This document shows positions 3,312 to 64,000 of a stretch of 64,000 nucleotides of DNA, one piece after another (the first letter of the stretch is position 1; each line of letters starts with the position of its first letter). The stretch comes from Candidatus Uhrbacteria bacterium (GTDB taxonomy: Bacteria; Patescibacteriota; Patescibacteriia; JACQRZ01): positions 147,591 to 211,590 of the forward strand of contig JACQSC010000004.1 in the NCBI GenBank assembly GCA_016206155.1. The letters run 5' to 3'. A program made the position numbers and the translations under genes. The notes below the pieces were generated by a model. It saw nothing but the letters and a program-made list of their open reading frames with translations, did not search any database and was not told where the DNA came from.

Positions 3312-3572
3312 ATGACCGTTCAATATACGCCCGACTTCAAGAAACAATACAAAAAATTGCAAAAGAAGTTTCGGGCGCGATTTGATGAGCGGCTTAACCT
3401 TTTTCTTGAACATCCAACGCATCCACTCCTTCGCGTTCATCCGTTAAAGGGATCGTTTGCCGGATATTGGAGCATGAACATCACCGGTGATATTCGTGCA
3501 TTGTACAGAATGGATGGCAACGATAGTATTATTTTTGCTCTCATTGGCACCCATAGCAGACTTTACGGGTAG
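3312..3572 (+). CDS. Type II toxin, YafQ/RelE family mRNA interferase.
   Basis: HPLKGSFAGYWSMNITGDIRALYR...IGTHSRLYG matches the YafQ/RelE fold signature (HPLxG...GTHxxLF). Confidence 0.75.
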   Translation: MTVQYTPDFKKQYKKLQKKFRARFDERLNLFLEHPTHPLLRVHPLKGSFAGYWSMNITGDIRALYRMDGNDSIIFALIGTHSRLYG

Positions 3573-4461: not shown

Positions 4462-4634
4462 TCGACTAGTATCGAGATGTTACTCTCGATTGTGTCTCCC
4501 TAGAAAGGAGGTGATCCACCGACAGCTTCCGCTACCGGTGCCTTGTTACGACTTAGCCCTTGTTACCAATCTTACCCTAGGTCCTCGAACGAGGCACTTC
4601 AGGTACTACCGGCTCCCTTGGCTTGACGGGCGGT

Positions 4635-5568
4635 ATCGGGATCGTTCTCTTGTCGTAACAAGAACGTCCCACACCACTGGGCAAACGGTTTTCCCGTACC
4701 CTAGCGGTTCCTATAGTGCTTTTTTGAAAAAGCTCGCATCTGGTCGCGAATATGCAGGACAGCATTAAACCCTTCATCAGTAAGATGTTTTTTCTCTTTA
4801 ATCATAAAACATGCTTGACGAAAGAGTGAATAGACATCCTTCTTCTTCCCTTGAAGTTTGTGCTTGTCGAAGAAGGGGATAACAAACTGACAAAGATCGC
4901 GAACACTGCCTACTTTATACTTCGCGTGAGGCGCCCAATCATATCGCTTGTAGTGGAGATCATACAACGATCCGCATCCGATTGTTGCTTGGATGCGTTC
5001 TAATATCTCCCGATCGTCAATGCGTAGTTCAATCTCGAAAAGAGGACGAAGGTCCACTTTTCGTTTCATGGTTGTATGTTTCGATGCACCAATACAGAAA
5101 CATCCTTCGCCATCAACGAATCCAGCGACATAATTGGGGTCGAGCTTTTGAGCACTAAAGGTTCGGTCCTTCTCCGATTGCGTATCGGATACTATGACCT
5201 CTGCTGACTTCTTGCATTGCGTCGACATATCGTTACCGCTCTGTCTTAATTTCTCAGTGTTAGTATACTACAATTTTATAGTACCCCCAAGAAATACAAT
5301 ACAAGATCTCCCTGGGTCATGTCTTGTCCCGTTTTCCTTCATCTCCGGCATTCTTTACATGCGTACGTTTATTAATGAAAAGATGACTTCTCCCTATACA
5401 CGCGGGATCGTCACGTACCCATGCCTCAACAAATGCTCAAGCTGAAAGATGCTACTTTCATTCTCCACATGTATCCTCGCGGATACATGCTATAATTTCG
5501 CTTCAAAGAATCTTTTCTTTCTTTGGTGTGATTTTCACACACTGGCACAAAACACTACCAGGCGCTCC
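4635..5568 (-). mobile_element. 16S intron 1 (~934 nt, at about E. coli position 1391/1392) carrying a single-motif LAGLIDADG homing endonuclease.
   Basis: The exon sequence GACGGGCGGT at 4625-4634 resumes as GTGTACAAAATCTGAGAACGTATTCACCG at 5569. The intervening sequence has no rRNA similarity. Confidence 0.8.
4701..5228 (-). CDS. LAGLIDADG homing endonuclease, single motif (YVAGFVDGEGCF), encoded in 16S intron 1.
   Basis: 175 aa with a canonical LAGLIDADG block near the N-terminus, on the same strand as the rRNA. Confidence 0.85.
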   Translation of the reverse strand: MSTQCKKSAEVIVSDTQSEKDRTFSAQKLDPNYVAGFVDGEGCFCIGASKHTTMKRKVDLRPLFEIELRIDDREILERIQATIGCGSLYDLHYKRYDWAPHAKYKVGSVRDLCQFVIPFFDKHKLQGKKKDVYSLFRQACFMIKEKKHLTDEGFNAVLHIRDQMRAFSKKHYRNR

Positions 5569-5877
5569 GTGTACAAAATCTGAGAACGTATTCACCGCAC
5601 CATGGCTGATGCGCGGTTACTAGCGATTCCGGCTTCATGGAGGCGAGTTGCAGCCTCCAATCCGAACTGGGGTCACTTTTTAGGGATTAGCTCCGTCTCG
5701 CGACTTGGCGACCCGTTGTGGTGACCATTGTAGCACGTGTGTAGCCCAGGGCGTAAGAGCCATGCTGATTTGACGTCGTCCTCGCCTTCCTCCCCGTTAA
5801 CCGAGGCGGTTTCTCGTGAACAATGCAACACGAGATGAGGGTTGCGCTCGTTTGAGGACTTAACCCGACATTTCACA

Positions 5878-5909
<32 letters not shown>

Positions 5910-5985
5910 CTCAGCGTTCCCTTGCGGGCACTTTCCTGTTTCTAGGAAATTCGCTGGATGTCAAACCCTGGTGAGGTTCCTCGCT

Positions 5986-6022
<37 letters not shown>

Positions 6023-6174
6023 AGATTCCCGTCAATTCCTTTAAGTTTTAGCCTTGCGGCCGTACTTCCCAGGCGGGATGCTTAACGAGTTATCTTATGT
6101 AAACGGCACTGAAAGGGTCGATACTTCCAATACCTAGCATCCATCGTTTACGGCGTGGAATACGCGGGTATCTA

Positions 6175-7176
6175 CAATTATTGTTACGCTCCTGACAAAT
6201 GTCAGAGCGACTCGATTTCACTCGAGTTCCTCATATCGCTAATGAGGTTCGGACTATCTCATCACCTCTTGAAATTGAGGAAGTTGATATACGATCGCTG
6301 GCTGCCGATATGATTCAATCATTAGATTGAGAATCGACTGCTTCTCATAATCAAACCAAAACTTTGAATGAAGTGTTGCTGTCACACCCTTCACAAAGCC
6401 GATGCGTTCCTGAAAAAGCCGTATATCCCTTTCCGTCTCAATTTTTATTTTCCTGTCACATGGCACTTCTCGCGCACGAATACCATTCCACCGAAGAAGG
6501 GTAAGGTAATCCGTGCGAAGTTGTTTATGATTACATGCGAGAAAAATCGTCCGAATAAGCCGGAAGGTTTTTCTCTCATTCTTCCCTCGCCGAAATGCGG
6601 GATATAAACTAACTCCTCCATCGCAACTAAAAGCTGCCTGAAGAAAGTTACGATCATATCCACTGCTTCTCAGCTGAAGCACTGGAATGGTGGCATGCGG
6701 TATACTTCCGTCGGAGAATGACAATGTCCGAAATCCTCCGAACCGCTGAACCAAAGTATTACCGATCTCTTTCGAGTTAACAATCGCCTTAAAGAGACCG
6801 TCTCGCGTCATTCAGAGACGTACTCTCTGTGCATCAAGTGAAAATGCGCCGATCATACTTGATCGAAAAAGATCAACTAAACTTTTTGATTTACAGGCAA
6901 AGTATATTCGCCAACTTTCCTTCTTCTTTGGGGAAACACATCCGTCGGTATAAAGCAAACCGAGAAGTGTTGCCAGGTCTTTTCCAATTGAGGTGCCCGA
7001 CATATAGTCTCTGAGGAGCCCCTTCTTTTTAATAAGGGTTTCCTGCTGATTGACTGTACGAAACGCATTGTTACTCCTAGTATTGTACCATGAGTAGCGT
7101 TCGATTTCCAGTTGTTCCAGCATATAGTCGGGTTTTTTTCCTCTCGTCACCGAGAGGGTGGACCAGATACCATTTG
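6175..7176 (-). mobile_element. 16S intron 2 (~1.0 kb, in the 785-806 region) carrying a double-motif LAGLIDADG endonuclease ORF.
   Basis: Exon GGGTATCTA ending at about 6174 resumes as ATCCGCTTCTCTCCCCACGCTTTCG at about 7177. Confidence 0.8.
6254..7150 (-). pseudogene. Double-motif LAGLIDADG homing endonuclease split by an in-frame TGA at 6812-6814. Motif 1 is LLGLLYTDGCVS and motif 2 is LQAAFSCDGGVS.
   Basis: ORFs 6812-7150 and 6254-6811 are contiguous in the same frame, separated only by TGA. Each half carries one LAGLIDADG motif. Confidence 0.6.
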
Positions 7177-7573
7177 ATCCGCTTCTCTCCCCACGCTTTC
7201 GTCCCTGAGCGTCAGAACTGTTCCAGTACCCTGCCTTCGCTTTTGGTGTTCCTGCCGATATTAAAGCATTTTACTGCTACACCGGCAATTCCAGGTACCT
7301 CTCCCAGCCTCTAGCTCGATAGTATCGTGCGCGGTCCTGATGTTGAGCACCAGGATTTAACACACGACTTACCGGGCCGCCTGCGGACCCTTTACGCCCA
7401 ATAAAACCGGATAACGCTTGGACCACTCGTATTACCGCTGCTGCTGGCACGAGTTTAGCAGGTCCTTATTCGTACGGTACACTCAGAACTTGTTCCCGTA
7501 CAAAAGCAGTTTACGCCCCGAAGAGCTTCTTCCTGCACGCGGCGTCGCTCCCTCAGACTTTCGTCCATTGGGG

Positions 7574-7604
<31 letters not shown>

Positions 7605-7901
7605 TAGGACAGTGTCTCAGTTCCCATGAGGCGGGTCATGCTCCCACACCCGCTACTCGTCGTAGCCTTGGTAGGCCGTTACCCTACCAACTAGCTGATG
7701 AGGCATAGGCCCCTCTTCAAGCGGATTGCTCCTTTACATGAGAATGTCTTATGACCCCTCATGACTATCGGGAATTAGCTCGCCTTTCGGCTAGTTGTGC
7801 CCGACTCGAAGGTAGGTTACCAATGTGTTACTCACCCGTTTGCCACTAGCGCTATCCAGTATTGCTACCGAATAACGCCCGTTCGACTTGCATGCCTTAG
7901 A

Positions 7902-7940
<39 letters not shown>

Positions 7941-8225
7941 TGTTTATGAGTTTGTTGACTCTTGTTTTCTTTGTTGAAGTTTCAATGAAACTTCAGGAAT
8001 TGACTTGCACGTATACAGCACGATCCCGCTTGCGCAGTATCGTTCCGTATACAAATTTATCGCCTTTTTACTGTCAAAGAACTGTTCCTTTTTCCACTGT
8101 TTAGTGTAGAAAAAAGAGAGAAGCCATATTCTTGTAGACGGCCTCACTCTTTTTTCCAAAACCGCTTTACTGTATTGTAAAAGGGGAGTGTTTGAAGGCT
8201 GTTTTGTTGATAATTTACAGCCCGT

Positions 8226-9420: not shown

Positions 9421-9738
9421 TTATGCGGTGGCCTTCTCGCTTTGAGCGCCTTCCTTCTGGGGCGCCTCCTTTGCCTTTATTCTTTTTTTGATAATAGGCT
9501 TTCCGCCAACAATGTTGCTCGCGACCAAAAGATTGTATACGGTCGGGGAGGCATGCGCACCCTTGCTTATCCAATAGAGAATCCGATCCTTATCAAGGGT
9601 AGTGGTTTTTGCGGCGGACAGGGGATCATAGGTCCCTACAATTTCGAGGGCATCACCAAAAAGATCGCGCGCCTTCTCTGAGACAACGACGCGATAGACG
9701 GGCTTGTTTTTCTTTCCCCGACGGGCAAGGCGAATCAT
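9421..9738 (-). CDS. rpsP: 30S ribosomal protein S16.
   Basis: MIRLARRGKKNKPVYRVVV N-terminus. The track ORF has 2 extra upstream codons. Confidence 0.9.
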   Translation of the reverse strand: MIRLARRGKKNKPVYRVVVSEKARDLFGDALEIVGTYDPLSAAKTTTLDKDRILYWISKGAHASPTVYNLLVASNIVGGKPIIKKRIKAKEAPQKEGAQSEKATA

Positions 9739-9747
9739 CAGCATAAA

Positions 9748-9768
9748 CAGGGGTTAGGGGTTAGGCCC
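9748..9768 (+). repeat. Telomere-like heptamer tandem GGGGTTA x2 (C-rich on the rpsP coding strand), directly upstream of the rpsP start codon.
   Basis: CAGGGGTTAGGGGTTAGGCCC. On the minus strand it reads CCTAACCCCTAACCCCTG-N3-ATG. Confidence 0.6.
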
Positions 9769-12363
9769 TTATAATACCATCGAGGTTTCGAATGTCAAGG
9801 CTTAAGGAATGGGAGACCCCCCCCTCACCCATCGTGATTCCATACAGCACATGACCAATGTGTATGGTTACGCGATTATGGGTAATGAGGATAAACTGGG
9901 TTTGCGTCGAAAGGTCATTAATAATTGAGGCGAATCGATTAGCGTTTGACTCATCGAGCGCCGCGTCAACCTCATCGAGCACGACAAAGGGAGAGGGATT
10001 CTGCGCTAAGATGGCGCAGAGAAGCGCAATGGCGGTCAACGCCTTCTCTCCTCCGGAAAGAAAACTGAGCGATTTGAATCGCTTGCCTGGAGGAGTTGCC
10101 TCGATTTCAATGCCAGCAATAGCGTCCTCACTGCCGCTCGCGTCATCCTCGCTCCCTGTTTCTTCATCGGCATCGGCCGCTTCCTTTTTTATCTCTCTGC
10201 GCAAAACCATGAGCCGAGCGGCGCCACCGCCAAAAAGCTGTTGAAAATACTGGCCAAATTTTATGCTAATACCTTCAATGTTTTTCTGAAAGAGCTCATG
10301 AATAATGGCATCGAGTTCTTCGATGGCTTTCTCGAGCGACCCCTTCGCCTGCGTGAGATCGGCAACCTGCGCTGTCAAAAATTCATACCGCCGCTTTGCT
10401 TCTTCGTGTTCTGCCATGGCGTCAGCATCAATCGTTCCAATCTGCTCAAGCTTGCGGCGCAGTCGTTCTGCATTCGCACGCGCTTCGTCCCGATCAAATG
10501 AGGGAACGTCGGCAAGGAATCCCAATTTCGAATATACCGTCTCGATACCATCATAGAGCTCGCGGCGAGCAGAGTCCTCAACACGGAGGTCATCGCACAG
10601 CTTGGCCAGCAATTCTTCTTGACGCGCTTCAAGCTTTGCAATCTCGAGGCTCACGCGAGTCAAGTCGTCGCGGAGCACATCGTGCTCTTTGGCCAAGGCT
10701 GACATTTCCTTCTGTAATGCAAGCAAAACGCGATGAACTTCTTTCTCGGACTCATAGAGCCGATCGATATCGCCCTGCGCGCGCTCAATCTTTTCTTCTA
10801 TCTCGTCGCGCTCTCGCACAAGGGCATCTTTCTCTGTCTTAGCCTGTGCGTGCTGATCGGAAGAGCTGGATAGGGAAAGATATTCAATCTCGCGAGTGGC
10901 CGTCTCTTGCTCGGCAACCGCTTTTTTCCTCTCGTCTTCCCGTAGACTCATGCGCGCGGAGAGAATCTCGCGGCGCGTCTGAATAGACCGGCGCTCATCC
11001 AGGAGCGCGACGCGCGACGCATCCACACCCGAAACGTCCGCACCCTCTTCCCGATAAGCAATAATACGCGCAAGTGCGCCTTTTAGCTTCTGAATGCGCT
11101 TGCCAATGGCATCGAGCATTTTTCGCAAGTTTGCAAGCGGCACATCCGGGGATGTCGCATCGCGGTGAAGTTGTTCGATTTCTTCAAGCGCTATGGCAGC
11201 GGAATGAACATCGGCGCCACCATCCGCCGTATGCTTGGCTATTGCATCAAGCTGCGCGCCAACCTCTTGTTCTCGCGCTCCCAATGCTTCGCACTCTTTT
11301 TGCGCAACAGAAAGGTCCTCATCAATCTTTTTGATCTGGCTTTTTAGATCGTCACTCCGCTGTGACAGCCACGCAAGCTGGCCCTTGCCGGATGCAATAA
11401 GCTCTGTTTGGAGTCGAGATTCAACAACAGAAAGACGAGTAAGAATTCGCTGTCGTTCATTCTGAAGCCCCGCAAGCACTCCAGAGAGTTCCTGATATGG
11501 CGAATGGTCGTCCGTGCGGATTGCGGCTTCATTTCGAATGAATTCTTGTTCGTGTTCCAGCTGTTTTTGCGCCAAAGCGGCAATCTTGTCTGAAATCGCA
11601 TCGCGCTCCTTACAGTACTCCGCCCTCGCAAATGCACTGTCGTTCCAGAGGGCATTGAGATACTGCTTTTGAACGGCGATATATTCTCGCTCGACTTCTT
11701 CGCGCTCTTCGAGGCGCTTAAGCTGACGGGCAAAAAACTTCATGCGCGGCTCAAGTTCTGAGAGTACCGTTGCGGCGTGAACGAGATTTTCATTTGTGCC
11801 CTTTAGCTTCGAAGATGCCGAGTCCCTCTTTATCTGATACTGGCGCACACCAACCGCTTCATTAAAAAATTCTTTCCGTTCGGCTGGAGCTGTCTGAAGA
11901 ATGGCATCAACCATCCCCTGACCAACTACGCTATAGCTGCGCTGGCCGATATGAGCCTGAGCCAACATGAGCGCAATATCAGAAAGGCGAACCTTATTTT
12001 TGTTCAAAAGGTACTCTGATGCGCCGTCACGATACAGCCGGCGCGTAATGACAACCTCGGCGTAGTCGACGGGAAAGGAGCGGTCATTATTGTTAAGGGT
12101 TAGCGACACCTCGCAGAATCCTTTTTGCGCTTTTTGTGTTGAACCAAAAAAAATTACATCCTCTGCGCGCTTGCTGCGCAAAAGCTTGAGACTCTGCTCC
12201 CCAAGCACCCACCGAATACTTTCTGCTATATTGCTTTTTCCTGATCCGTTCGGCCCGATCACGGCAGTGATGCCATAATGGTCACCTTCATGGCCGGGAA
12301 ACGAGAAGGTTGTTTTTTCCGAAAAAGATTTAAAACCCTGAATCTCTAATTTTTGTAAAAACA
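9761..12363 (-). CDS. smc: Chromosome segregation protein SMC (short form, about 867 aa from the MFLQKLEIQGFKSF start).
   Basis: N-terminal Walker A GPNGSGKSN, coiled-coil middle, and C-terminal LSGGEKALTAIALL...VLDEVDAALDE signature plus Walker B. Numerous antisense ORFs in the track are spurious. Confidence 0.85.
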
Positions 12364-32896: not shown

Positions 32897-33261
32897 TTTT
32901 TGTTATCCCTCCTCGATGCGGTGTGGCGTCGCTGTATATACGAAAGCGTGCGAACAATCTCGGGTTCCAACAGGGCAGATTTCGCGCCCAGAGCGCTTTG
33001 CTTTACGACAATCACCACGTCTACGGGGCTTGTACACAGTACAATATTTTTTCTCACACACTCGCGCAGTCGCCTTTTGATGGTATTCCGCTCGGTTGCC
33101 TTTTTGGATATTTTGTTCGCGACAACAAAGCCGAAGCGGGGAACAGAAAGAGCGTTCTCGCGCCACCGCACGGTATAAAAGGGAGTCGCCGCGCGCTCTC
33201 CTTTTAAAAAAACCCTCTGAAAATCGTCTTTTCCAGAAAGGCGGTGAATGCGGGACAACAT
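32893..33261 (-). CDS. rnpA: Ribonuclease P protein component.
   Basis: RLSGKDDFQRVFLKGERAATPFYTVRW...RNTIKRRLRE RnpA motifs. Confidence 0.8.
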   Translation of the reverse strand: MLSRIHRLSGKDDFQRVFLKGERAATPFYTVRWRENALSVPRFGFVVANKISKKATERNTIKRRLRECVRKNIVLCTSPVDVVIVVKQSALGAKSALLEPEIVRTLSYIQRRHTASRRDNKK

Positions 33262-33262
33262 G

Positions 33263-33406
33263 TTACGATGCAACAGTCAATTTTTTACGCCCTTTTGCTC
33301 GCCGCCGCTTGAGAACGGTGCGTCCTGTTTTTGTCTCCATACGCGCGCGAAACCCGTGTGTTTTTGCCTTTTTCCTTTTTTTTGGCTGATACGTCCGCTT
33401 TGGCAT
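33263..33406 (-). CDS. rpmH: 50S ribosomal protein L34 (47 aa; absent from the ORF track because it is under 60 aa).
   Basis: Hand translation gives [47 protein letters not shown]. Confidence 0.85.
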
Positions 33407-33616
33407 ATCGAATAAAGCTCATGAATCTTTCACTAGCATACCGTATGTAATAAAAAATGTAAACGAGGGGCTTGCTTTTTTTCTTATTCACATTACACTG
33501 GTTGTTATTCACATGATATCCACACTCTATACACTCGCTCGTTCTTTTATTGTTTTTGGTCCCATGCTACAATCCACGCGTTCTCAATTTACTCTTTCTT
33601 CAATCCTTTTGTGCAT
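33407..33616. promoter_or_regulatory. rpmH-dnaA intergenic region with DnaA-box-like 9-mers: TTATTCACA x2 at 33484 and 33505, ATATCCACA at 33516.
   Basis: One-mismatch matches to TTATCCACA, located at the classical origin position. Confidence 0.5.
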
Positions 33617-35002
33617 ATGAATACCGTCCAGCTCTGGCAGGCTACGCTCGGTGAGCTTGAGATCCTCTTGAGTAAACCGAATTTCAGCACATGGTTCCGC
33701 GAAACATTTGTTGTTTCGCATGAGAATAATAAGGTTGTCATTGGTGTCCCAAACGCGTTTACAAAAACCTATCTCGAAAAAAAGTATCATGTTCTCATCG
33801 TTCGCGCGCTTCGCAATGTGGCGCCCGAGACAATCAAAGATGTGCTCTACAAAGTTGAACTCAAAGATCTCAGAAAACAGGCTGACCCACCCTTCGCTTC
33901 CGAACCCGACGTGTTCAGCCAAGCTCTCGGCCAGTCATTTGCCAAGCAAAGCGCTCCTAGGCCCGAACACGTTACTCCGGCAGGTCTGAATCCGCGCTAT
34001 ACCTTTCATAATTTCATTGTCGGGAAATACTGCGAGCTTGCACATGCGGCTTGCCAGGCGGTCTGTGACACGCCCGGTGAAACATACAACCCGCTATTTA
34101 TCTATGGGGGGGTGGGCCTTGGAAAAACACACCTCCTCCAGGCGGTTGGTCACGAGATCCTTACTCGCAGTCCTGAGAAGCGGGTGTTGTTTGTTACGTG
34201 TGAAAAGTTTTCAAACGACTACATTCAAGCCGTTCGCTCGGGGCGCGCAAAGGAGCTTAAAGACACCTACCGCAGCGTTGACGTTCTCATCATCGACGAT
34301 GTTCAGTTCCTTTCAAGTAAAGAGGGGACCCAGGAAGAGTTCTTTCACACCTTTAATGCGCTCCATCAAACAAATCGTCAGCTTATTATATCTTCAGACC
34401 GCCCGCCAAAAGCAATCCCAGCAATCGAGGGGCGTCTTCTCTCCCGCCTCGAGTGGGGCATGATCGCCGACATTACCAGCCCCGACCTTGAAACGCGCAT
34501 CGCTATTTTAGAAACAAAATGCAAGGAGAAGGGTGTTCGGGTTTCCGGCGATATTATCAACTATATCGCAACAATGGTGCACAACAACATCAGGGAGCTT
34601 GAGGGGGCGCTCAACCGCATTTTGGCGTACAGCCAGCTCAACAACGAGGAGCTTGGGTTTGAAAAAATAAAACAAATCCTCTCGTCCCTTACGATGAGCT
34701 ATGCTAAAAAATCAATCACACCAAAACAGATTGTTTCACTTGTCGCTGAATTTTATAATCTCGCGATTGGCGATCTTATCGGTGAGTCGCGAAAGCGAGA
34801 ACTTGCCATTCCGCGTCAAATTAGCATGTATCTCATGCGCGAGGAAATAAAGTGTTCCTTCCCGACAATCGGACAAGAAATAGGGGGGCGCGACCACACA
34901 ACCGCCATACACGCATACAATAAAATTCAGCGGGATGTTGACGAAAGTCCAAAAGTAAAACAGGATATTGATCTTATTCGCCAACGTATGTACAACATCT
35001 AA
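33617..35002 (+). CDS. dnaA: Chromosomal replication initiator DnaA.
   Basis: Walker A GGVGLGKTHLLQAVG, an AAA+ core, and the C-terminal DNA-binding helix region. Confidence 0.9.
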   Translation: MNTVQLWQATLGELEILLSKPNFSTWFRETFVVSHENNKVVIGVPNAFTKTYLEKKYHVLIVRALRNVAPETIKDVLYKVELKDLRKQADPPFASEPDVFSQALGQSFAKQSAPRPEHVTPAGLNPRYTFHNFIVGKYCELAHAACQAVCDTPGETYNPLFIYGGVGLGKTHLLQAVGHEILTRSPEKRVLFVTCEKFSNDYIQAVRSGRAKELKDTYRSVDVLIIDDVQFLSSKEGTQEEFFHTFNALHQTNRQLIISSDRPPKAIPAIEGRLLSRLEWGMIADITSPDLETRIAILETKCKEKGVRVSGDIINYIATMVHNNIRELEGALNRILAYSQLNNEELGFEKIKQILSSLTMSYAKKSITPKQIVSLVAEFYNLAIGDLIGESRKRELAIPRQISMYLMREEIKCSFPTIGQEIGGRDHTTAIHAYNKIQRDVDESPKVKQDIDLIRQRMYNI

Positions 35003-35213
35003 TAACCCTGTGATGAATGTGTGAATAATGCGTGTATACATTAATTCTGTCCGTGGTGGTACACAGACTATTCGAAACTTTTCCAAGTATCCATCCACAG
35101 TAAAAAATATAAACTCCCTTTTATAAAAAGAAAAAACACCCTTATCCACTCCGTCCACACCCCTTATTATTATTACTATCTTTAGATATATATAAATAGA
35201 AATAGATACCCTT
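35003..35213. promoter_or_regulatory. Putative oriC core: DnaA boxes (TGTGAATAA at 35020, TATCCATCCACA at 35089, TTATCCACT at 35143) plus an AT-rich unwinding element (35165-35210).
   Basis: Seen in sequence. The dnaA-dnaN intergenic region is a common oriC site. Confidence 0.5.
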
Positions 35214-36332
35214 GTGAATATCTCTTGCCTTCAAGAAAATCTCTCCTCATCACTTTCACTCGTACGCGCAGGTATTGGAAAGGAAACCGGACTCACTATT
35301 CTTTCAACAATCCTTATTCGCGCCGAGGAAAAGTTTATTTATCTCAACACAACAAATCTTGAGGTTGCCATTCAGTGTACTGTTCGGGGCAAAGTTGAAG
35401 AAGAAGGAAGTATTGCATTACCAGCAAAAACATTTACTGACTTTATTTCACTTCTTCCAAAAGAAAAAATTGAACTTAAAAAAATCGACACCACACTCGA
35501 GATTACATGTGGAGCGTACCATACAAAAATTCACGGGATGGTTCCTGATGAATTTCCACTTATCCCACCGCCAGAAGGCGGAAGCGTTCTTACGTGTTTA
35601 CAGAAGGATTTAAAGGGCGCGCTTTTCTCTGTGGGCCATGCGGCCTCACAACAAGAAACACGTCCCGAACTTCATGGTGTATTATTTCAATGGGTACAAG
35701 AAAAAAATCACTGTGTGTGCGTCGGAACAGACGCATATCGGCTCGCCGAAACGTTTATTAAGGCGCGCGGAAACACACCGGATGTTTCGTGCATCATCCC
35801 CCTAAAAACAGTATATGAACTTTCACGAACGCTTCTCTCCGATGATGACAGTGAATGTGAGGTTTGTATTACCGACACGCAAGTGAGCATAAAAACAGAT
35901 ATGGTTGAGTGTGTGTCAAAGATTGTTCAAGGGGCATTTCCCGATTATCACAGCATTATTCCCCAACACATCGTTACGCGCGCCGTGCTTGAGCGTGACG
36001 AATTAAACCGCGCGGTGAAGGCAACAAGCCTTTTTTCTCGAGGGGGGCTGCATGATGTGGTTTGTCACCTTGTTCCAACCGACGGGACCCGCGGCACCGT
36101 TACTCTATCATCATCAAATGCAAGCGTAGGTGAAAACACCGTTACTCTCGATGCAGAAATGACCGGCAGTGAGAATACTATCACGCTTAATTATCGCTAT
36201 CTTCTCGATGGGCTTTCCCATATGGAGTCAGATGTCGTTTCGTTTGAAGTTGTTGACACACAAAGCCCCTGTATTTTAAGGCCTGCGGGTAAGGGGGAGC
36301 TTACCTATCTCATCATGCCAATCCGCGAATAA
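35214..36332 (+). CDS. dnaN: DNA polymerase III beta sliding clamp.
   Basis: 372 aa immediately after dnaA. Three-domain length and the C-terminal MPIRE are typical of the family. GTG start. Confidence 0.8.
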   Translation: MNISCLQENLSSSLSLVRAGIGKETGLTILSTILIRAEEKFIYLNTTNLEVAIQCTVRGKVEEEGSIALPAKTFTDFISLLPKEKIELKKIDTTLEITCGAYHTKIHGMVPDEFPLIPPPEGGSVLTCLQKDLKGALFSVGHAASQQETRPELHGVLFQWVQEKNHCVCVGTDAYRLAETFIKARGNTPDVSCIIPLKTVYELSRTLLSDDDSECEVCITDTQVSIKTDMVECVSKIVQGAFPDYHSIIPQHIVTRAVLERDELNRAVKATSLFSRGGLHDVVCHLVPTDGTRGTVTLSSSNASVGENTVTLDAEMTGSENTITLNYRYLLDGLSHMESDVVSFEVVDTQSPCILRPAGKGELTYLIMPIRE

Positions 36333-39443: not shown

Positions 39444-40157
39444 CTACGCAAGATTTGAAGACACGCTCACAACATCAGGCATCCCTTCAAGGACTTCAAC
39501 AAGTTTTTCAATCTTTTCTTGTTGGTCGGGAGGGAGCGTCACGCGTTCTTTTGGCGCGAGATCGATTTCCGCAAACACGAGAGTGGCGCCAATTCCCTCA
39601 AGATATTCCTTGATTGATTGAAATTGTTCCGGTGTGGTGAGGATGGTGCACCCATCGTCATCTTTTATAATATCTTCTGCGCCGCGTTCAATCAAGGCAA
39701 GCTCATGTTCATCGGTACACACAGCGGCATCAATCCCAATACTGCCGCGGCGCTCAAACATCCACCGGACGCTGTTTGCGGCGCCGAGGTTGCCGCCGTG
39801 TTTTGAAAGTGCGTGCTTGATCTCCGACACGCTTCTATTGCGATTGTCGGTCAGTGTCTGAATAATGAGGGCAACGCCGCCGGGGCCAAAGCCCTCATAA
39901 GTGATCTCCTCAAGGGATTCGCCCGCAAGCTCGCCGGTTCCGCGCTTGATGGCGCGCTCAATATTCTCTTTTGGCATGTTGACGCCGCGGGCTTTATCGA
40001 TGGCGAGGCGCAGGGAAAAGTTTGTTTCTGGGTCACCGCCCTTTTCGCGCGCGGCAATGGTAATAACGTGCGCGACTTTAGTAAAGTTTACCGCACGCTT
40101 TGCGTCTACAACCGCCTTCGCCCGTTTTGTGGTTGCCCATTTAGAGTGACCAGACAT
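39444..40157 (-). CDS. yebC: YebC/PmpR family DNA-binding regulator.
   Basis: MSGHSKWATTKRAKAVVDAKR... hallmark N-terminus. Confidence 0.85.
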   Translation of the reverse strand: MSGHSKWATTKRAKAVVDAKRAVNFTKVAHVITIAAREKGGDPETNFSLRLAIDKARGVNMPKENIERAIKRGTGELAGESLEEITYEGFGPGGVALIIQTLTDNRNRSVSEIKHALSKHGGNLGAANSVRWMFERRGSIGIDAAVCTDEHELALIERGAEDIIKDDDGCTILTTPEQFQSIKEYLEGIGATLVFAEIDLAPKERVTLPPDQQEKIEKLVEVLEGMPDVVSVSSNLA

Positions 40158-40166
40158 AGGAGAGCA

Positions 40167-40195
40167 GGGGTTAGGGTAGAGGGTTTAGGGTTTAG
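40167..40195 (+). repeat. Telomere-like heptamer tandem GGGTTAG/GGGTTTAG x4 (C-strand on the yebC coding strand), directly 5' of the yebC ATG.
   Basis: GGGGTTAGGGTAGAGGGTTTAGGGTTTAG. Confidence 0.6.
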
Positions 40196-40317
40196 AAAAA
40201 AGCCAAAACCAAACATAACAGAATTGCTCTGCCCATGAATTCAGTATAGCACAAATTACCTCCTATTGCAAGACGGGGTTGTGGCAAATTGGTTGGCGTG
40301 ATAAGGTTGTTCTTATG

Positions 40318-41409: not shown

Positions 41410-42706
41410 CTTTTTCAAACACAAACAATTCGCGGGCGACACGAGCATCGGGTCTGGAAATGACAAGAGAGCCGCGCTCGGTTACGCCCGAAAGAACGCG
41501 ACGCAGAGAGTCTGGAACCGTTACGTTTATAAAGCCTTGCTTCATCAGCGCGTTGAGGCAGGGAATATGTCGTTGCCGGGAGTCGGCCATCCAAACTGGG
41601 AAAACAATCACAACGCGACCCGCGCGCGCGAGCGCCTCGTGAAATGAGCGGAAGCTTTGAATATAGAGATCGCAGAGCGCATCAATTTCTTTTTCAGAAA
41701 CATGTTGGTGGCGCGCTGAAAGCGCTGGTCCCAGCGTTGGCTCAGTGACGATCGCACCGATTGAGCGCTTTGGAAAGCACGACGCGAGTTTTTGCGCGTC
41801 ACAGTGCTTTACGGATACGCAAACGGGGTCAGGCACAGATTTTGCAGCAGCAAAAACTGAGCCAGACCCCGTTTGAGCCAGACCCCATTTCTTAAGCCAC
41901 GAAATATTCTCTTTTGTCGCACCGACGTTCTTCTCATCAATATCGCTTCCTGATACATTGGTATATTCAAGCAGCAGCGCCTCCTGCAAGACAGTCCCAA
42001 GTCCACAAAACGGATCAAGAAGCGACGCATCTTTTTCGGCCCTCGCGAGATTAATCATGATGCGGGCAAGCTTTGGGGGGAGGAGGCCGGTTTTCATGTC
42101 TCGATGCGGACGGCCGTAATCACGGCGCGCATATTCTTCAAATTCCTGCACCGCGGCGGTGATGCCGATGTCGATCGTATCATTATCGATCAACAAAACG
42201 TATTCAACGTTCGGCTCTGTCACGAGATGATTTTTTTCAACAACAACCGATGACAGGGCTGTTGCGCCGTGCTGTGGAGCGACAAAACGCGCAGAAACGC
42301 CATGTTCCCGCAGACACTTTTTAAGAGCAATTCCTTCTCTCTGGATCCAAAGCGCGATGCGACGCGCTTCATTTCCCTTGAGCGGTTTTTGTGATACGCT
42401 GTATGCACTGACGCCAAAGGTTATTCGTTCGTGTGCGGCAGTCGATCGTCCCAAAAGATCGTTCGTGATATATGCGGCAGCGCAAGAAAAATCTTTTTTT
42501 GTTGAACCCATGACCCTGCCACCCTTTATGGCTCCGCCAAGACGATGGATGAGGGGCACAGTATCAAGAACACCATCAAAGGAAAATGGTATTGCCTCAC
42601 TTCCGGCGCGATCAAGAGCGAGCGACCCGCCGTTATGTGAGAGGACGGCGCATAACTCAAGTAATGAAAGTGAGGGAAGCCGTCCCGGAATAAGGAAGTA
42701 GTTCAT
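41399..42706 (-). CDS. THUMP-domain RNA methyltransferase (UPF0020/Trm11/RlmL-like). It carries an in-frame insertion of the dispersed repeat at 41824-41890.
   Basis: Class I SAM motif DPFCGLGTV. The internal segment KWGLAQTGSGSVFAAAKSVPDPV is encoded by the repeat. The start is probably the ATG at 42704-42706. Confidence 0.7.
   Translation of the reverse strand: MNYFLIPGRLPSLSLLELCAVLSHNGGSLALDRAGSEAIPFSFDGVLDTVPLIHRLGGAIKGGRVMGSTKKDFSCAAAYITNDLLGRSTAAHERITFGVSAYSVSQKPLKGNEARRIALWIQREGIALKKCLREHGVSARFVAPQHGATALSSVVVEKNHLVTEPNVEYVLLIDNDTIDIGITAAVQEFEEYARRDYGRPHRDMKTGLLPPKLARIMINLARAEKDASLLDPFCGLGTVLQEALLLEYTNVSGSDIDEKNVGATKENISWLKKWGLAQTGSGSVFAAAKSVPDPVCVSVKHCDAQKLASCFPKRSIGAIVTEPTLGPALSARHQHVSEKEIDALCDLYIQSFRSFHEALARAGRVVIVFPVWMADSRQRHIPCLNALMKQGFINVTVPDSLRRVLSGVTERGSLVISRPDARVARELFVFEKVTR
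41824..41890 (-). repeat. Copy 7 of the dispersed palindromic element (with a partial duplication), in-frame inside the methyltransferase gene.
   Basis: Reverse complement GGGGTCTGGCTCAAACGGGGTCTGGCTCAGTTTTTGCTGCTGCAAAATCTGTGCCTGACCCCG. Confidence 0.8.
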
Positions 42707-51734: not shown

Positions 51735-51789
51735 CGCGGTTTGACACGCGCGGATTCGACCAGTACTCTAACAAACAAGAAGGAATGAG

Positions 51790-51818
51790 CTAAACTCTAA
51801 ACTCTAAACTCTAAATCC
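51790..51818 (+). repeat. Heptamer tandem CTAAACT x3 (then CTAAATCC), immediately 5' of the SPFH gene ATG.
   Basis: TAAACTCTAAACTCTAAACTCTAAATCCT then ATG. Confidence 0.6.
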
Positions 51819-51819
51819 T

Positions 51820-52632
51820 ATGGCATTAAACTACGAAACAATGGAGCAGATTAAAAAGATTAAAAAGAATATCGTCGGAATTGCAACAATAGTGGTCGTT
51901 GCCGTTATCATGCTGGGCGCCGTTGGCACCATTGGCGCCGGAGAACGAGGCATTCTTTTGCAGTTCGGCGCGGTGCAGGGCAAAGTTTTTGAAGAGGGGC
52001 TGTATTTTAAAATTCCGTTTGTACAGGAGGTGGTGAAGATGGATGTGAAAATTCAAAAAGACGAAGTGCCGGCAAGTGCCAGTTCAAAAGACTTGCAAAT
52101 TATTACTTCGAAGGTTGCGATTAATTATCACCTTGAGCCCGATAAAGTGAACAGTATTTGGCAGGAAGTCGGGCGAGAATATAATACACGCATTATCGCG
52201 CCGTCAATCCAAGAAGCGGTTAAGGCGGTGACCGCGCGGTTTACCGCCGAGGAGTTGATTATCAAACGCGAAGAAGTCAAAGATCAGATTAAGACTAATC
52301 TCGCCGAACGTCTGATTAAGAATAACATTATCGTGGATGAAATTAACATCACAGCGTTTGACTTTTCTCAAGCGTTTAACGAGGCGATTGAGGCAAAGGT
52401 AACAGCCGAGCAACTCAAGCTCAAGGCCGAACGCGACCTTGATAGAATAAAGATAGAGGCGGATCAAAAAATAGCGGAGGCGCAAGGCAAAGCAAAGGCG
52501 ATTCAAATAGAGGCCGAGGCGCTTCGCTCAAACCCCCAAGTGGTTGAACTGCGCTGGATCGAAAAGTGGGACGGTAAAACCCCAACCTATTGGGGACAGG
52601 CAAGCCCATTCGTTGGGATTGACAAGAAGTAG
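51820..52632 (+). CDS. SPFH/band-7 (prohibitin/HflC-like) membrane protein.
   Basis: N-terminal TM segment, then an SPFH core followed by a coiled-coil tail. Confidence 0.75.
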   Translation: MALNYETMEQIKKIKKNIVGIATIVVVAVIMLGAVGTIGAGERGILLQFGAVQGKVFEEGLYFKIPFVQEVVKMDVKIQKDEVPASASSKDLQIITSKVAINYHLEPDKVNSIWQEVGREYNTRIIAPSIQEAVKAVTARFTAEELIIKREEVKDQIKTNLAERLIKNNIIVDEINITAFDFSQAFNEAIEAKVTAEQLKLKAERDLDRIKIEADQKIAEAQGKAKAIQIEAEALRSNPQVVELRWIEKWDGKTPTYWGQASPFVGIDKK

Positions 52633-60866: not shown

Positions 60867-60940
60867 AAAAACGAAGAATCAAGAATTAAGCAGAACCACG
60901 AAGGGAGAGGAGCATTCTTAATTCTCGATTCTTAATTCTA
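60867..60940 (+). promoter_or_regulatory. Large hairpin with 15-bp arms (AGAATCAAGAATTAAG...CTTAATTCTCGATTC) and a loop containing GAAGGGAGAGGAG, immediately 5' of the HD-domain gene ATG.
   Basis: Inverted repeat seen in the sequence. Confidence 0.3.
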
Positions 60941-60946
60941 TTCTCT

Positions 60947-62146
60947 ATGGTATCACCAGAGCTTATTAGAAAACTTTTTTCCGCAGCGTATATCAAACGA
61001 TGGAACGACAAGCTTCGCCCCATTGATTTTGTTGAGTTTGACAAAGCGGCGCACAAGATGTTCATCGCGTATATTCTCGGTGCATGTGAAGAGCGGAAAG
61101 AGCCTATTGTATGGCGTGATGTTATTGAGGGCGGGCTTTTTTCGTTGCTGCAGAAAGTCGTTCTTACCGATCTGAAGCCAACAGTGCTTTCACTGATAAA
61201 AAAAGATCCGGTGAAGAGCGCTCAGCTCAATACGTACGTGTATTCCGAGCTTGCGAGCATGATCGAGCCATTTGGGGAGGAGTTTTGTCAGCGGTTTCGC
61301 CGTTATTTTGAGCCAGGGGAGGAAACGCGGGAAAAAAAGATTTTGAACGCGGCGAGCATTCTTTCAACCACATGGGAGTTTGATATTATTGAGCGCGCCG
61401 ATCCGCACGGTTTTGAAACCGCGGAAATTAAAGAAAATCTAGAAAAGAAGCTTGAGCAGTACACGGATCTTGAGGGCATGAAAGAATATTATAGCCACGT
61501 GTCTCTGCGGCATTTCGTAGATTTGTGCGGGCAGCTGCGCTTTCATGAACGCTGGGCATATGTTCATCGTATCCCAAAAACCTCGGTTTTGAGCCATTGT
61601 CTTTTTGTCGGCTTCCTTGCTTATCTCTTTTCGCTTCAGCATCATGCGTGTAGCCGCCGACTCTATAATAATTTTTTTGCCGGTTTGTTTCATGATTTTC
61701 CCGAAACACTCACCCGCGACATCGTAACCGGAGTAAAGCGTTCAGTCGAGGGCTTGCGAGATATCATTATTCAGTATGAGAAGAGCGAAATGAAAAAACG
61801 CGTGTACCCACTTCTCCCCGAAGATGTGCATATTGAGGTGCGCATGTTTACCGAGATTGACGACCGCAATCGAGTTGTCATCGATGGGGAAGAGCGGTAC
61901 GTGCTGTGTGGGGAAATTGCAGAGAAGTATAATGACGACAAGTACGACCCCTGTGAGGGTGAATTGGTCAAGGCGTGTGATGAACTGACGGCGTTCGTAG
62001 AAGCGGATGAGGCAATCAAAAACGGATGCGTCAGCGAGCGCTTCGAACTCGCGAAAGAGAGTGTTATAAAAAAATACGGCAACAAAACTGTCTGCGGAAT
62101 TTCATTGAGCGCGATCGCCGAAAAATATGAGAGAGATAGAGGTTAA
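60947..62146 (+). CDS. HD-domain phosphohydrolase (YfbR-like) with an N-terminal extension.
   Basis: H..HRIPKTSVLSHCLFVG and the LFHDFPE HD motif. Confidence 0.6.
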   Translation: MVSPELIRKLFSAAYIKRWNDKLRPIDFVEFDKAAHKMFIAYILGACEERKEPIVWRDVIEGGLFSLLQKVVLTDLKPTVLSLIKKDPVKSAQLNTYVYSELASMIEPFGEEFCQRFRRYFEPGEETREKKILNAASILSTTWEFDIIERADPHGFETAEIKENLEKKLEQYTDLEGMKEYYSHVSLRHFVDLCGQLRFHERWAYVHRIPKTSVLSHCLFVGFLAYLFSLQHHACSRRLYNNFFAGLFHDFPETLTRDIVTGVKRSVEGLRDIIIQYEKSEMKKRVYPLLPEDVHIEVRMFTEIDDRNRVVIDGEERYVLCGEIAEKYNDDKYDPCEGELVKACDELTAFVEADEAIKNGCVSERFELAKESVIKKYGNKTVCGISLSAIAEKYERDRG

Positions 62147-62654: not shown

Positions 62655-63339
62655 ATTGCTTGGGCAAGAAGCTCGAACCGTGCTCGCGAAGTTCTTGAAG
62701 AACAATGCCCGGCGTTCAATTCTTCTTCTCTGTTCAGGGGGGTCTGCGCTTGATCTTTTGCAGGATACTCCAAAAGACTGTCTTGGTCCTAATATGACGC
62801 TCGGGGTTCTTGACGAGCGATATAGTAGCGATGAAGCCATTAACAATTTCGCGCAACTCGAAAAAACATCATTTTTCCAAGCGGCACGGCGTGCTGGCGC
62901 ACACGTAATTGACACGCGTCCCAAAGAAGGTGAGACACACGAGCAACTCACTTTACGTTTTGAAAGTGAGCTGCGATCGTGGATGAAGGACCATCCAGGC
63001 GGAATCATAGTCGCGACGATGGGGATTGGTTCGGATGGGCATACGGCTGGCATTATGCCGTTTCCCGAAGACGAAACATTATTTTGGGCATTGTTTGGTG
63101 AGCTTGGAAGGTTTGTTCAAGACTATGATGCAGGAGACAAAAACCAACATCCGCAGCGCATAACCATTACGCTATCATTTTTGGTGATGATCAATCATGC
63201 GATTGTATACTGTGTCGGCGAAGGAAAACGAATCGCGCTTGAGCGTGTTATGGCCGAGGAGGGATCATGCGCGCACACTCCCGCGCGAATCATTCGCGAG
63301 ATGAAAGACGTTTTGTTGTTTACCGATATCACGCTTTGA
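62626..63339 (+). CDS. pgl: 6-phosphogluconolactonase/glucosamine-6-phosphate deaminase family protein.
   Basis: GIGSDGHTAGI motif. Confidence 0.7.
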   Translation: MDIRTNSNAELLGQEARTVLAKFLKNNARRSILLLCSGGSALDLLQDTPKDCLGPNMTLGVLDERYSSDEAINNFAQLEKTSFFQAARRAGAHVIDTRPKEGETHEQLTLRFESELRSWMKDHPGGIIVATMGIGSDGHTAGIMPFPEDETLFWALFGELGRFVQDYDAGDKNQHPQRITITLSFLVMINHAIVYCVGEGKRIALERVMAEEGSCAHTPARIIREMKDVLLFTDITL

Positions 63340-64000
63340 TGAGCGCGTTCCAGTCAGCGGCAAACCGCTCAATGCCCTTGTCGGTCAATGGATGAGATAT
63401 GTCCAGAACGCGCCAGTCGCTATCAAGCGAAATTTGTCGGTAGAGAATTGGCGCGAGATTTTTTGTATCATAGACATAGTCCTTAGCCGGTATCGGCATT
63501 CCTTGATCTGCCCATTCAAGAAGAATAGTGCTGGGCGCTGTAATAATATCAGCGCCATAGAATAGTGATGCAAGAAAGTGATCAATACTGCGGATACTCG
63601 CGCTCAATATCTCTACGTGACTTTGTTGCTCGCGGTACATTGCGAGGATATTTTTTATGAGATCCATGCCATTCTCACCAATGTCGTCCAGCCGACCGAC
63701 AAACGGTGAAACGAAAACGCCTCCTTTTTTGCTCATGCGCGTTGCGCAGTGAACTGCGGCGGCCTGTTGTTGCGAAAAGCAGAGGGTCATATTGACGCGT
63801 ATATCTTCTGCAGTCGCACGCTCTGAAGCCTCGAGACCCGCTGCGGTAATAGGGAATTTAATGTGTGCATTAGGAATCCAATCAAACATTTGTTTACAAT
63901 TGTTAAACATTTGTTCAACATTTGTTGATCTTTCCGCATACACTTCCACTGATATCGATCCACGGGGAATCAGCGCGGACATCTCTTGAACAACGGATTT
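63329..64000 (-). CDS. tal: Transaldolase (Tal/FSA family), partial: the N-terminus lies beyond the window edge.
   Basis: VFVSPFVGRLDDIGENGMDLI and ADIITAP motifs. The alignment implies about 45 aa are missing upstream of 64000. Confidence 0.75.
   Translation of the reverse strand, partial: KSVVQEMSALIPRGSISVEVYAERSTNVEQMFNNCKQMFDWIPNAHIKFPITAAGLEASERATAEDIRVNMTLCFSQQQAAAVHCATRMSKKGGVFVSPFVGRLDDIGENGMDLIKNILAMYREQQSHVEILSASIRSIDHFLASLFYGADIITAPSTILLEWADQGMPIPAKDYVYDTKNLAPILYRQISLDSDWRVLDISHPLTDKGIERFAADWNALIKA

Follow-up and report, generated by a model that had tools for sequence, protein, structure and literature searches.

Heptanucleotide repeats next to bacterial genes have been described in several lineages. 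The GGGAATC heptamers of Xanthomonas and the GGGGA(C/T)T heptamers of Nostoc, which are of the STRR type, are over-represented in non-coding DNA (Rehm 2015, PMC4692102). Their G-rich strand lies preferentially antisense, at most 50 bp upstream of ORFs, with four units as the preferred number; the same sites are occupied in related genomes with varying length and sequence, and the neighbouring genes have no common function (PMC4692102). Roles at the DNA level, by means of G-quadruplexes (G4) or i-motifs, have been proposed for the two heptamers, and Mrazek 2007 is cited in the same article for a general excess of heptamers among bacterial simple sequence repeats (SSRs) and for a slippage hypothesis (PMC4692102). 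Heptamers also occur near the start codons of recF and recO in Nostoc (preprint 10.1101/2022.06.06.494920). In marine Beggiatoaceae and in some Cyanobacteria and Bacteroidetes, TAACTGA repeats end a few nucleotides before start codons devoid of a Shine-Dalgarno (SD) sequence, and S1, Csp and CsrA have been proposed as their binders (MacGregor 2015, PMC4679880). The (ATCTTTC)n repeat in the 5'UTR of Haemophilus influenzae hmw1A and hmw2A base-pairs with a G-rich segment of the same leader, and RNase III cleaves it (PMC12721329). As to the translation apparatus of the CPR bacteria, the anti-SD motif is lost or little detected in part of the Parcubacteria, and the CPR S1 protein is short (Tsurumaki et al., PMC9297842).

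The window analysed here is a whole stretch of 64,000 nucleotides from a Candidatus Uhrbacteria bacterium, with a GC content of 48.8%; the exact or nearest matches to its YebC, SPFH and S16 proteins bear the names Candidatus Uhrbacteria or Patescibacteria. The preliminary description of this DNA had placed C-rich repeats just before the starts of rfbA, rpsP, yebC and an SPFH gene; all four are present in the sequence, and Tandem Repeats Finder (TRF), run on the 64-kb window, returned each of them as a period-7 tandem array. The rfbA-like leader carries CTATACC CTTTACC CTAAACC CTGTACC CTT at 1535-1567 on the plus strand, ahead of the ATG at 1572 (TRF: 1538-1565, 4.0 copies). The array of rpsP is short, (CCTAACC)2 CCTGTTT at 9745-9766 on the minus strand (TRF: 9749-9765, 2.4 copies), and the TAA stop codon of the upstream SMC gene (9763-9761) falls in its first unit. 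The start of rpsP is set at the ATG at 9744, and not at 9738 as had been read before, because the 107-aa S16 protein of NCBI matches exactly and the N-terminus MLMIRLAR is in keeping with the family. Before yebC, CTAAACC CTAAACC CTCTACC CTAACCC CTGCTCT CCT occupies 40158-40198 on the minus strand and directly adjoins the ATG at 40157 (TRF: 40166-40195, 4.3 copies). The SPFH/prohibitin leader holds a perfect array, (CTAAACT)3 CTAAATC CT at 51788-51819 on the plus strand, adjoining the ATG at 51820 (TRF: 51790-51815, 3.7 perfect copies); for this gene the orthologues support a start 7 codons upstream of the one given by NCBI. A fifth such array, ATTCTTA ATTCTCG ATTCTTA ATTCT ATTCTCT, lies at 60911-60946 on the plus strand and adjoins the ATG at 60947 of a gene for a YfbR-like HD-domain protein; TRF delimits it as (ATTCTTA/ATTCTCT)n and places it at 60914-60939, its end being 8 nt away from that ATG. 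The genes downstream of the other four were assigned by Pfam as NTP_transferase (rfbA-like), Ribosomal_S16 (rpsP), TACO1_YebC (yebC) and Band_7 (SPFH). Hence the genes concerned are of mixed housekeeping kind: a nucleotidyl (NTP) transferase, S16, YebC, an SPFH protein and an HD hydrolase.

All five arrays are G-poor on the mRNA strand and most of their units are G-free. The unit sequences vary by gene in the window (CCCTAAA, CCCCTAA, CTCTAAA/CTAAACT and ATTCTTA), although a skeleton CT-N-N-A-Y-Y, read by eye, is common to all of them. The idea of a single shared leader motif does not hold, as the units differ between genes and also between orthologues.

Of the eight period-7 arrays that TRF found in the window, five have their end 5-9 nt before a start codon; an array end at most 12 nt upstream was counted as proximal. 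The binomial probability of this arrangement is P ~1e-8 with the whole window as background, and P ~3e-4 if arrays are taken as limited to non-coding DNA, which represents 12% of the window. A lag scan, independent of TRF, detected seven period-7 regions in the window against 1.8 in shuffles. The control set consisted of 80 loci from other phyla (~500 kb), obtained from a YebC scan dominated by the universal MSGHSKWA motif and giving only relatives of at most 52% identity. It yielded 17 lag-7 arrays against 2-6 at other non-triplet lags and 1.3 in shuffles, and several of these arrays are placed just before ATGs, for instance (CCCCCAA)n-tgacg-ATG in a Methylomirabilota MAG. The word CCCTAAA is not enriched in the window, with four occurrences on both strands against about eight expected per 128 kb by our own arithmetic. 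It is therefore the tandem arrangement and the position that are non-random, and not the 7-mer CCCTAAA itself. In the other leaders of the clade the mean autocorrelation at lag 7 was 0.284, against 0.253 at lag 6 and 0.279 at lag 8; since this rise is marginal, heptamer periodicity belongs to a subset of leaders. G-poor tracts, defined as at least 28 nt with no more than one G, did not discriminate: about 150 were matched in 64 kb, and most of them lie opposite a coding strand. Counted from the ATG, the CT dinucleotide falls in the same register in four of nine arrays by our own count, which is not significant (P ~0.17).

The reading of the arrays as chance low-complexity sequence, meaning nothing beyond base composition, would agree with the lack of enrichment of single 7-mers in the window and with the shortness of the arrays. 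It is opposed by the positional probabilities, even the conservative one, by the lag-7 excess over shuffles in the window and in the control loci, and by the relatives of this genome, where the yebC leader of locus L086 has a homologous array and the SPFH orthologue of locus L091 a period-7 array. Chance is effectively refuted by the lag scan, the yebC homology with L086 and the position statistics together, and its probability is negligible. A different matter is the resemblance to telomeres noticed in the preliminary description. The plant-type telomere repeat, with its telo-box, is (CCCTAAA)n, and the 7-mer is identical to it. The arrays of the window are internal, with 2-4 degenerate units between promoter and start codon, and no terminal arrays were found. 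A telomere assignment was rejected for these arrays of a bacterial genome, the likeness being a coincidence of sequence only.

The arrays have the defining features of bacterial heptanucleotide SSRs near ORFs. As in the Xanthomonas and Nostoc heptamers, the sense strand shows C3-4 followed by 3-4 A/T-rich bases, about four units are common, and the repeats are non-coding and lie by ORFs. Upstream of an ORF, the sense strand of all five arrays of the window is either rich in C or poor in G, and the same intergenic site is used in relatives with variable units (yebC in the window, L085 and L086; SPFH in the window and L091). They differ from those heptamers in that units of the CCCTAAA/CCCCTAA kind coexist with units devoid of C-tracts, CTAAACT and ATTCTTA, and in that the host is a CPR bacterium. 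Moreover, only two of the five arrays fit a G4 pattern, and the lineage, in which the arrays stop 5-9 nt short of the ATG, is without SD enrichment.

This comparison bears on whether the arrays act as DNA, with a G4 on the template strand or an i-motif on the coding strand, just past the promoter, modulating transcription. A search for at least four G3+ tracts with loops of 1-7 nt showed that the window has only two canonical four-tract G4 motifs, one on the template strand of the rfbA array (1540-1563) and one on that of the yebC array (40167-40190, where the plus strand is the template), both recognised as sequence patterns. These two arrays have about four units, the number preferred in PMC4692102, and their orientation is also the one reported there, with the G-rich strand antisense and at most 50 bp upstream of the ORF. 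However, three of the five arrays have no capacity for an intramolecular G4, as rpsP has two G-tracts and the SPFH and HD genes have none; the total of two motifs in the window is no excess over the 1.07 expected from shuffles; and the orthologous arrays in L085 and L091 have no G3 tracts. A role as DNA structure is accordingly considered quite improbable.

Promoter-like sequences upstream of the arrays place them in the 5' leaders. The sequence TTGCAA-17-TATACT with an extended TG is found upstream of yebC at 40243-40271 on the minus strand. Five orthologous loci (L085, L086, L088, L095 and L096) have TTGCAA-17-TATACT/TATGCT upstream of yebC; in L094 only a TATACT box is visible within the stretch read. 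Upstream of rpsP, TTGACA-16-TATTAT with an extended TG (9771-9798, minus strand, 11 of 12 matches) is conserved in the orthologues L099, L100 and L101, and the predicted 5'UTR of ~20 nt is nearly all repeat. The rfbA site, TTGACT-17-TTTAAT at 1499-1527 on the plus strand, was read by eye and is below the threshold of the consensus scan; it is kept in the orthologue L101 as TTGACC-17-TTAAAT. Because conserved sigma-70-like promoters lie upstream of yebC, rpsP and rfbA, the arrays are, judging from these predicted sites, transcribed 5' leader (5'UTR). The earlier placement of the repeats at the SD position, C-rich on the coding strand and in leaders downstream of promoters, thus stands.

Other assignments of the units were rejected. 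TAAACT and TACCCT fit TANNNT and could be taken as -10 boxes of leaderless transcripts, but their spacing to the ATG is inconsistent, and the conserved promoters of yebC, rpsP and rfbA are further upstream. Units acting as stop codons that close all three frames, one per unit over three units, are true of SPFH only; the yebC and rpsP arrays block two frames and the rfbA array contains a single TAA. A site for a transcription factor on double-stranded DNA, which had been suggested beside a C-rich enhancer, an S1 or KH-protein site and i-motif DNA, appears unlikely, since the units follow one another in contiguous 7-bp phase and their strand asymmetry is strict.

In four of the five leaders the predicted folding is not stronger than in shuffled sequence (z = +0.5 to +0.7). 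For the yebC leader, at z = -2.5 to -2.6, the prediction pairs the G/U-rich 5' part (40199-40242, minus strand) with both the C-rich array and the AUG. The same 5' part holds a 14-codon ORF, which starts 6 nt past the -10 box and has the first TAA of the array as its stop. The heptamers of the HD gene have an inverted copy of 17 nt, AAGAATCAAGAATTAAG at 60874-60890 on the plus strand, which is 94% complementary to 60917-60933 across a 26-nt loop. No inverted partner was found for the rfbA, rpsP and SPFH arrays.

The arrays could then be one arm of a hairpin, serving RNase III-type processing, mRNA stabilisation, masking of the start codon or termination of the upstream gene. The yebC fold, with array and AUG paired, and the upstream copy at the HD gene would conform to this, and so would metagenomic CCCTNNA arrays, several of which have an inverted G-rich GGGTNNA arm with strong predicted hairpins (in L160 with z = -7.9, followed by U8 and the ATG; in L162 with z = -7.8). 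The (ATCTTTC)n leader of hmw (PMC12721329) offers a precedent by analogy. It is likewise a pyrimidine-rich, G-free heptamer SSR in a 5'UTR, with a hairpin comparable to those of the yebC and HD-gene leaders, although it has at least 11 units, is phase-variable and belongs to an adhesin, whereas here 2.4-4.3 units precede housekeeping genes. Against the hairpin, the rfbA, rpsP and SPFH arrays are unpartnered and fold no better than shuffles, the hairpin of the HD gene is not significant (z = -0.57), and the arrays of L085 and L086 follow directly after the -10 box and are without a partner. As a general explanation of the arrays it is therefore regarded as highly improbable.

The 3' end of the 16S rRNA is canonical, with GGATCACCTCCTTTCT at 4516-4501 on the minus strand and an intact anti-SD, and the earlier statement that the repeats are unable to pair with the anti-SD is correct for that reason. 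Upstream of this end, the 16S gene (minus strand) is interrupted by two introns, one of group I and one of group II, which both contain LAGLIDADG ORFs. The use of SD was analysed at 138 starts, 44 of them curated in the window and 94 from gene calls on related loci, by searching for 4-mers or longer pieces of AGGAGGT whose end lies 4-13 nt before the start. Such SD-like 4-mers precede 14 of the 138 starts (10.1%) and 10.7% of random positions taken from the window, and no 4-mer or longer piece of AGGAGGT is present in the array-bearing leaders. There is thus no SD enrichment in this Uhrbacteria-like clade, and the SD-less leader is the norm. In the same clade T is found at position -1 in 98 of the 138 starts (71%), and from -14 to -5 the leaders are A-rich, with G at ~0.15-0.2. 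The repeats had been seen as a gene-specific alternative among neighbours that use SD; since the lack of SD is a rule of the whole clade, they are no gene-specific alternative to normal SD use.

Initiation independent of SD is a feature of Bacteroidetes and cyanobacteria. The present lineage resembles them in its lineage-wide lack of SD, in its A-rich unstructured leaders and in the presence of a position-specific context at the start. It differs from Bacteroidetes, for which A-rich Kozak-like positions are reported, in that the context signal is U at -1, and from the part of the Parcubacteria with a lost or faint anti-SD in that the canonical motif is kept. The placement of the arrays, in forward orientation and ending 5-9 nt before SD-less ATGs, is the one known for TAACTGA repeats. 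[quoted passage not shown] However, there the one unit TAACTGA dominates genome-wide, in 169 sets, while the unit of the window differs by gene and is mostly G-free. With CCCTAAA, CCCCTAA, CTAAACT and ATTCTTA as units, the arrays were not assigned to the TAACTGA family.

Orthologous leaders revealed both turnover and conservation. The yebC leader of the window was compared with those of six orthologues of 72-82% amino acid identity, and arrays are present in three of the seven loci, namely the window, L086 and L085, all with period-7/14 leaders of the CCTAAA type; none was found in L088, L094, L095 and L096. One of the two SPFH orthologues, L091 (91% amino acid identity), has (TAAATCG/TAAATCT)3.7 at the same place, the unit having changed at this high identity, and L092 (80%) has no array. 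The rpsP orthologues L099/L100 (85%) and L101 (74%) lack an array, that is, none of two lineages has one, and the single rfbA orthologue, in L101, has none either. Further units seen in orthologues are TAAATCG and CCTACAA/CCTAATT. The comparison of sequences thus indicates frequent gain, loss and unit drift of arrays over conserved promoters. Absence from the leaders of close relatives had been named beforehand as evidence against an alternative leader motif, and the outcome is divided: arrays are absent at rpsP and rfbA and partly at yebC, and one is present in the closest SPFH orthologue.

At least one array, that of yebC, has apparently been kept under constraint. The arrays of the window and L086 are homologous, with ~79% identity (30 of 38 positions, own count on the alignment), and the variant unit CTCTACC sits at the same place in both, whereas the third codon positions of yebC are 40% identical between the two loci. 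This difference implies a constraint at the sequence level beyond that on any G-poor filler. No difference in copy number was seen: the yebC leader is identical in four further assemblies of the same organism and the SPFH leader in two, a limited sample of consensus sequences from one study. The arrays do not resemble phase-variable contingency SSRs: no copy-number polymorphism was seen in those consensus assemblies of one study, and none of the five genes belongs to the surface, virulence or restriction-modification classes associated with such SSRs.

The conservation of the yebC array far above synonymous sites would agree with arrays that are platforms for a single-stranded RNA-binding protein. 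Such a protein, for example one with a cold-shock domain, a shortened S1 or KhpA/KhpB, would cover ~7 nt and be bound one per unit. It would keep the leader open or recruit the 30S subunit, and the array would be a true SD-substituting enhancer or regulator of translation. By analogy, the 7-nt register and the richness in pyrimidines fit CspB, of which one molecule per heptamer binds pyrimidine-rich ssDNA/RNA (PMC1904285, PMC1636342), and binding of the CspB type has been discussed for the TAACTGA repeats (PMC4679880). The shared CT-N-N-A-Y-Y skeleton, the occurrence of the same unit family in other SD-poor lineages, both CPR and Bacteroidota, and the KhpA gene adjoining rpsP point in the same direction. 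Nevertheless, the units are too diverse for one specific site (compare ATTCTTA with CCCTAAA), many orthologous leaders are without an array, a search of the window and of four related loci revealed no cold-shock-domain motif, and the units keep no significantly fixed phase to the ATG (the four of nine arrays mentioned above). On balance a protein platform is unlikely, although it deserves to be taken seriously.

Arrays of this type are also found outside the clade. An exact-pattern scan of metagenome contigs for CTAAACNCTCTACCCTAA gave at least 120 matches; among the matches listed, part are long telomere-like arrays, probably eukaryotic, and many are arrays of 3-6 units within unique sequence. 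At least eight metagenomic arrays end 3-21 nt before ATGs of housekeeping genes, among them those of S13, ThrRS and a GatA-type amidase; other ORFs following such arrays we take to be LipB, MraY and Hsp20. The CCCTAAA/CCCTCTA/CCCTATA family precedes housekeeping genes in a contig of Candidatus Staskawiczbacteria, a CPR lineage, and in a contig that matches Prevotella. Orientation in 34 short metagenomic arrays is mildly biased, with 14 ORFs starting beyond the C-rich end and 9 beyond the G-rich end, in a test based on crude ORF calls and on contigs of which some are probably eukaryotic. The recurrence of CCCTAAA, CCCTCTA and CCCTATA in unrelated contigs hints at a more specific selected property, for example the C3 tracts or a binding protein.

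In its widest form, such a property would make the CCCTNNA-type arrays a cross-phylum element for initiation that substitutes for SD, where a conserved Csp-, S1- or KhpA-like protein, bound in a 7-nt register, hands the mRNA to the 30S subunit. This is a bold proposal with little probability of being right. If true, it would explain why heptamers, and not other non-triplet repeats, are in excess in bacterial non-coding DNA, and why start-proximal arrays are reported mainly in the SD-poor Beggiatoaceae, Cyanobacteria, Bacteroidota and CPR.

The position of the arrays, their strand bias, their promoter context, the lack of SD in the clade, the turnover between orthologues and the heptamer excess in other phyla are observed facts. 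The best explanation for them, which has about an even chance of being correct, is that the arrays are heptamer SSRs born by slippage and kept as unstructured, G-poor leaders free of start codons. Polymerase slippage would create heptanucleotide SSRs inside the short 5'UTRs of individual genes, and the arrays would persist in one orientation only, that which is G-poor on the mRNA. As initiation proceeds without sign of SD pairing, the leader would need chiefly to be single-stranded, with no AUG, GUG or UUG and no G-rich structure; a leader without G is necessarily without those three codons. The G-free repeat of C, A and U may then function as a landing or standby region for the ribosome before the preferred U(-1)AUG. 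Since such a repeat would satisfy the needs of the leader, the arrays would be interchangeable low-complexity leaders and not a shared regulatory motif, selection retaining the unstructured and start-codon-free property in place of a given unit. Four findings count against this explanation: the yebC array is conserved above third codon positions, the CCCTAAA/CCCTCTA/CCCTATA family recurs ahead of housekeeping genes in unrelated contigs, the typical leaders of the clade are A-rich and not C-rich, and no copy-number polymorphism was seen in the four yebC and two SPFH assemblies from one study.

Heptamer repeats by bacterial genes have been known since the cyanobacterial STRRs, and later from Xanthomonas and the Beggiatoaceae; a CPR lineage is now added. 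The case is useful for the combination that it offers, namely arrays that make up almost the whole 5'UTR, no SD signal despite an intact anti-SD, and one conserved array next to others that turn over. In genomes of this kind, gene callers and ribosome-binding-site models that assume SD will misplace starts, as exemplified by the NCBI start of the SPFH gene. The U(-1)AUG context is a candidate for what determines initiation without SD in Patescibacteria. Moreover, these leaders turn into a testable question whether a G-free 7-nt repeat in front of a start codon is a tolerated unstructured leader or a recognised element.

Tandem repeats with a period of seven are not peculiar to this genome. In the 80 unrelated bacterial loci used as controls (L005-L084), period-7 arrays were 3-8 times commoner than arrays of periods 4, 5, 8, 10, 11 or 13, and these loci thus reproduce independently a heptamer excess that is already published. 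One of them, a Saccharibacteria MAG (L079), carries a perfect (AAAACTC)5.4 array at 3428-3465, within the region aligned to YebC by tblastn. Because this 38-nt non-triplet repeat falls inside a coding match, the sequence suggests that the gene is frameshifted or split, or that the locus was mis-assembled. In the window itself the sole further multi-copy non-triplet array is an 11-nt tandem unit, about AACATTTGTT, present in four copies at 63885-63926, either before the minus-strand gene 63329-63982 or in its 5' end.

Where a CCCTNNA array occurs in a metagenomic contig, it frequently has as partner an inverted GGGTNNA array located 10-30 nt upstream, and the pairs form very stable predicted hairpins, with z down to -7.9 (L160 3620-3703 and L162 4760-4854; also L106, L124 and L109). 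The hairpin of L160 is followed by a U8 run and then by the thrS ATG; the heptamer palindrome there resembles a terminator for the gene upstream, set right against the next start codon.

Another repeated element of the window is the 10-mer GACCCCATTT, found at 24 sites against 4.3 expected when one mismatch is allowed. The majority of its copies are arranged as inverted pairs, AAATGGGGTC ... GACCCCATTT, with a spacing of about 30-45 nt, as at 1061-1070/1105-1114, 3631-3640/3670-3679, 16642-16651/16681-16690, 40943-40952/40984-40993 and 41821-41830/41865-41874; tandem copies occur at 1097-1157 and 41858-41890. Judged by its sequence, the family is one of palindromic elements, REP-like or terminator-like. 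The probable replication origin lies near dnaA (33617-35002) and dnaN (35214-36332), at 33000-33620 and 35000-35213, where DnaA-box-like sites are found at about 33484-33525 (TTATTCACA twice and ATATCCACA) and an AT-rich tract with short repeats at 35164-35213, immediately upstream of dnaN.

The minus-strand 16S rRNA gene (4505-7947) is interrupted twice, by a group I intron at about 6229-7186 that contains LAGLIDADG-like ORFs (6254-7150), and by a group II intron at about 4635-5500, in which 5166-5248 and 5326-5486 match Rfam D1-D4 and a LAGLIDADG_1 ORF lies at 4701-5228. The Rfam SSU alignment stops at 5505, short of the 3' exon (4505-4634) that bears the anti-Shine-Dalgarno (anti-SD) sequence. 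Although this anti-SD is canonical, SD motifs were not enriched in the Uhrbacteria-like clade, preceding 10.1% of 138 starts, taken from the window and the related loci L085, L086, L088, L091, L094-L096, L099 and L101, versus 10.7% of random positions.

The yebC leader contains a 14-codon minus-strand ORF, MGRAILLCLVLAFF (40193-40237), that starts 6 nt past the yebC -10 box, a leaderless geometry, and is closed, 36 nt upstream of the yebC ATG, by the first TAA within the heptamer array; it is not conserved in L085 or L086 and is therefore probably fortuitous. For the SPFH gene, the NCBI protein (263 aa) starts at 51841, 7 codons downstream of the first ATG at 51820. Orthologues are 270-271 aa long and their alignment begins at that first ATG, so the NCBI start is likely a mis-call in an SD-less genome.

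The same 138 starts have T at -1 in 71% of cases and are A-rich from -14 to -5. Together with the lack of SD enrichment, this strong preference at -1 and the A-rich stretch suggest that initiation in the Uhrbacteria-like clade would be SD-independent, possibly through an extended codon-anticodon contact; that U-1 would touch A37 in the initiator tRNA is our inference.
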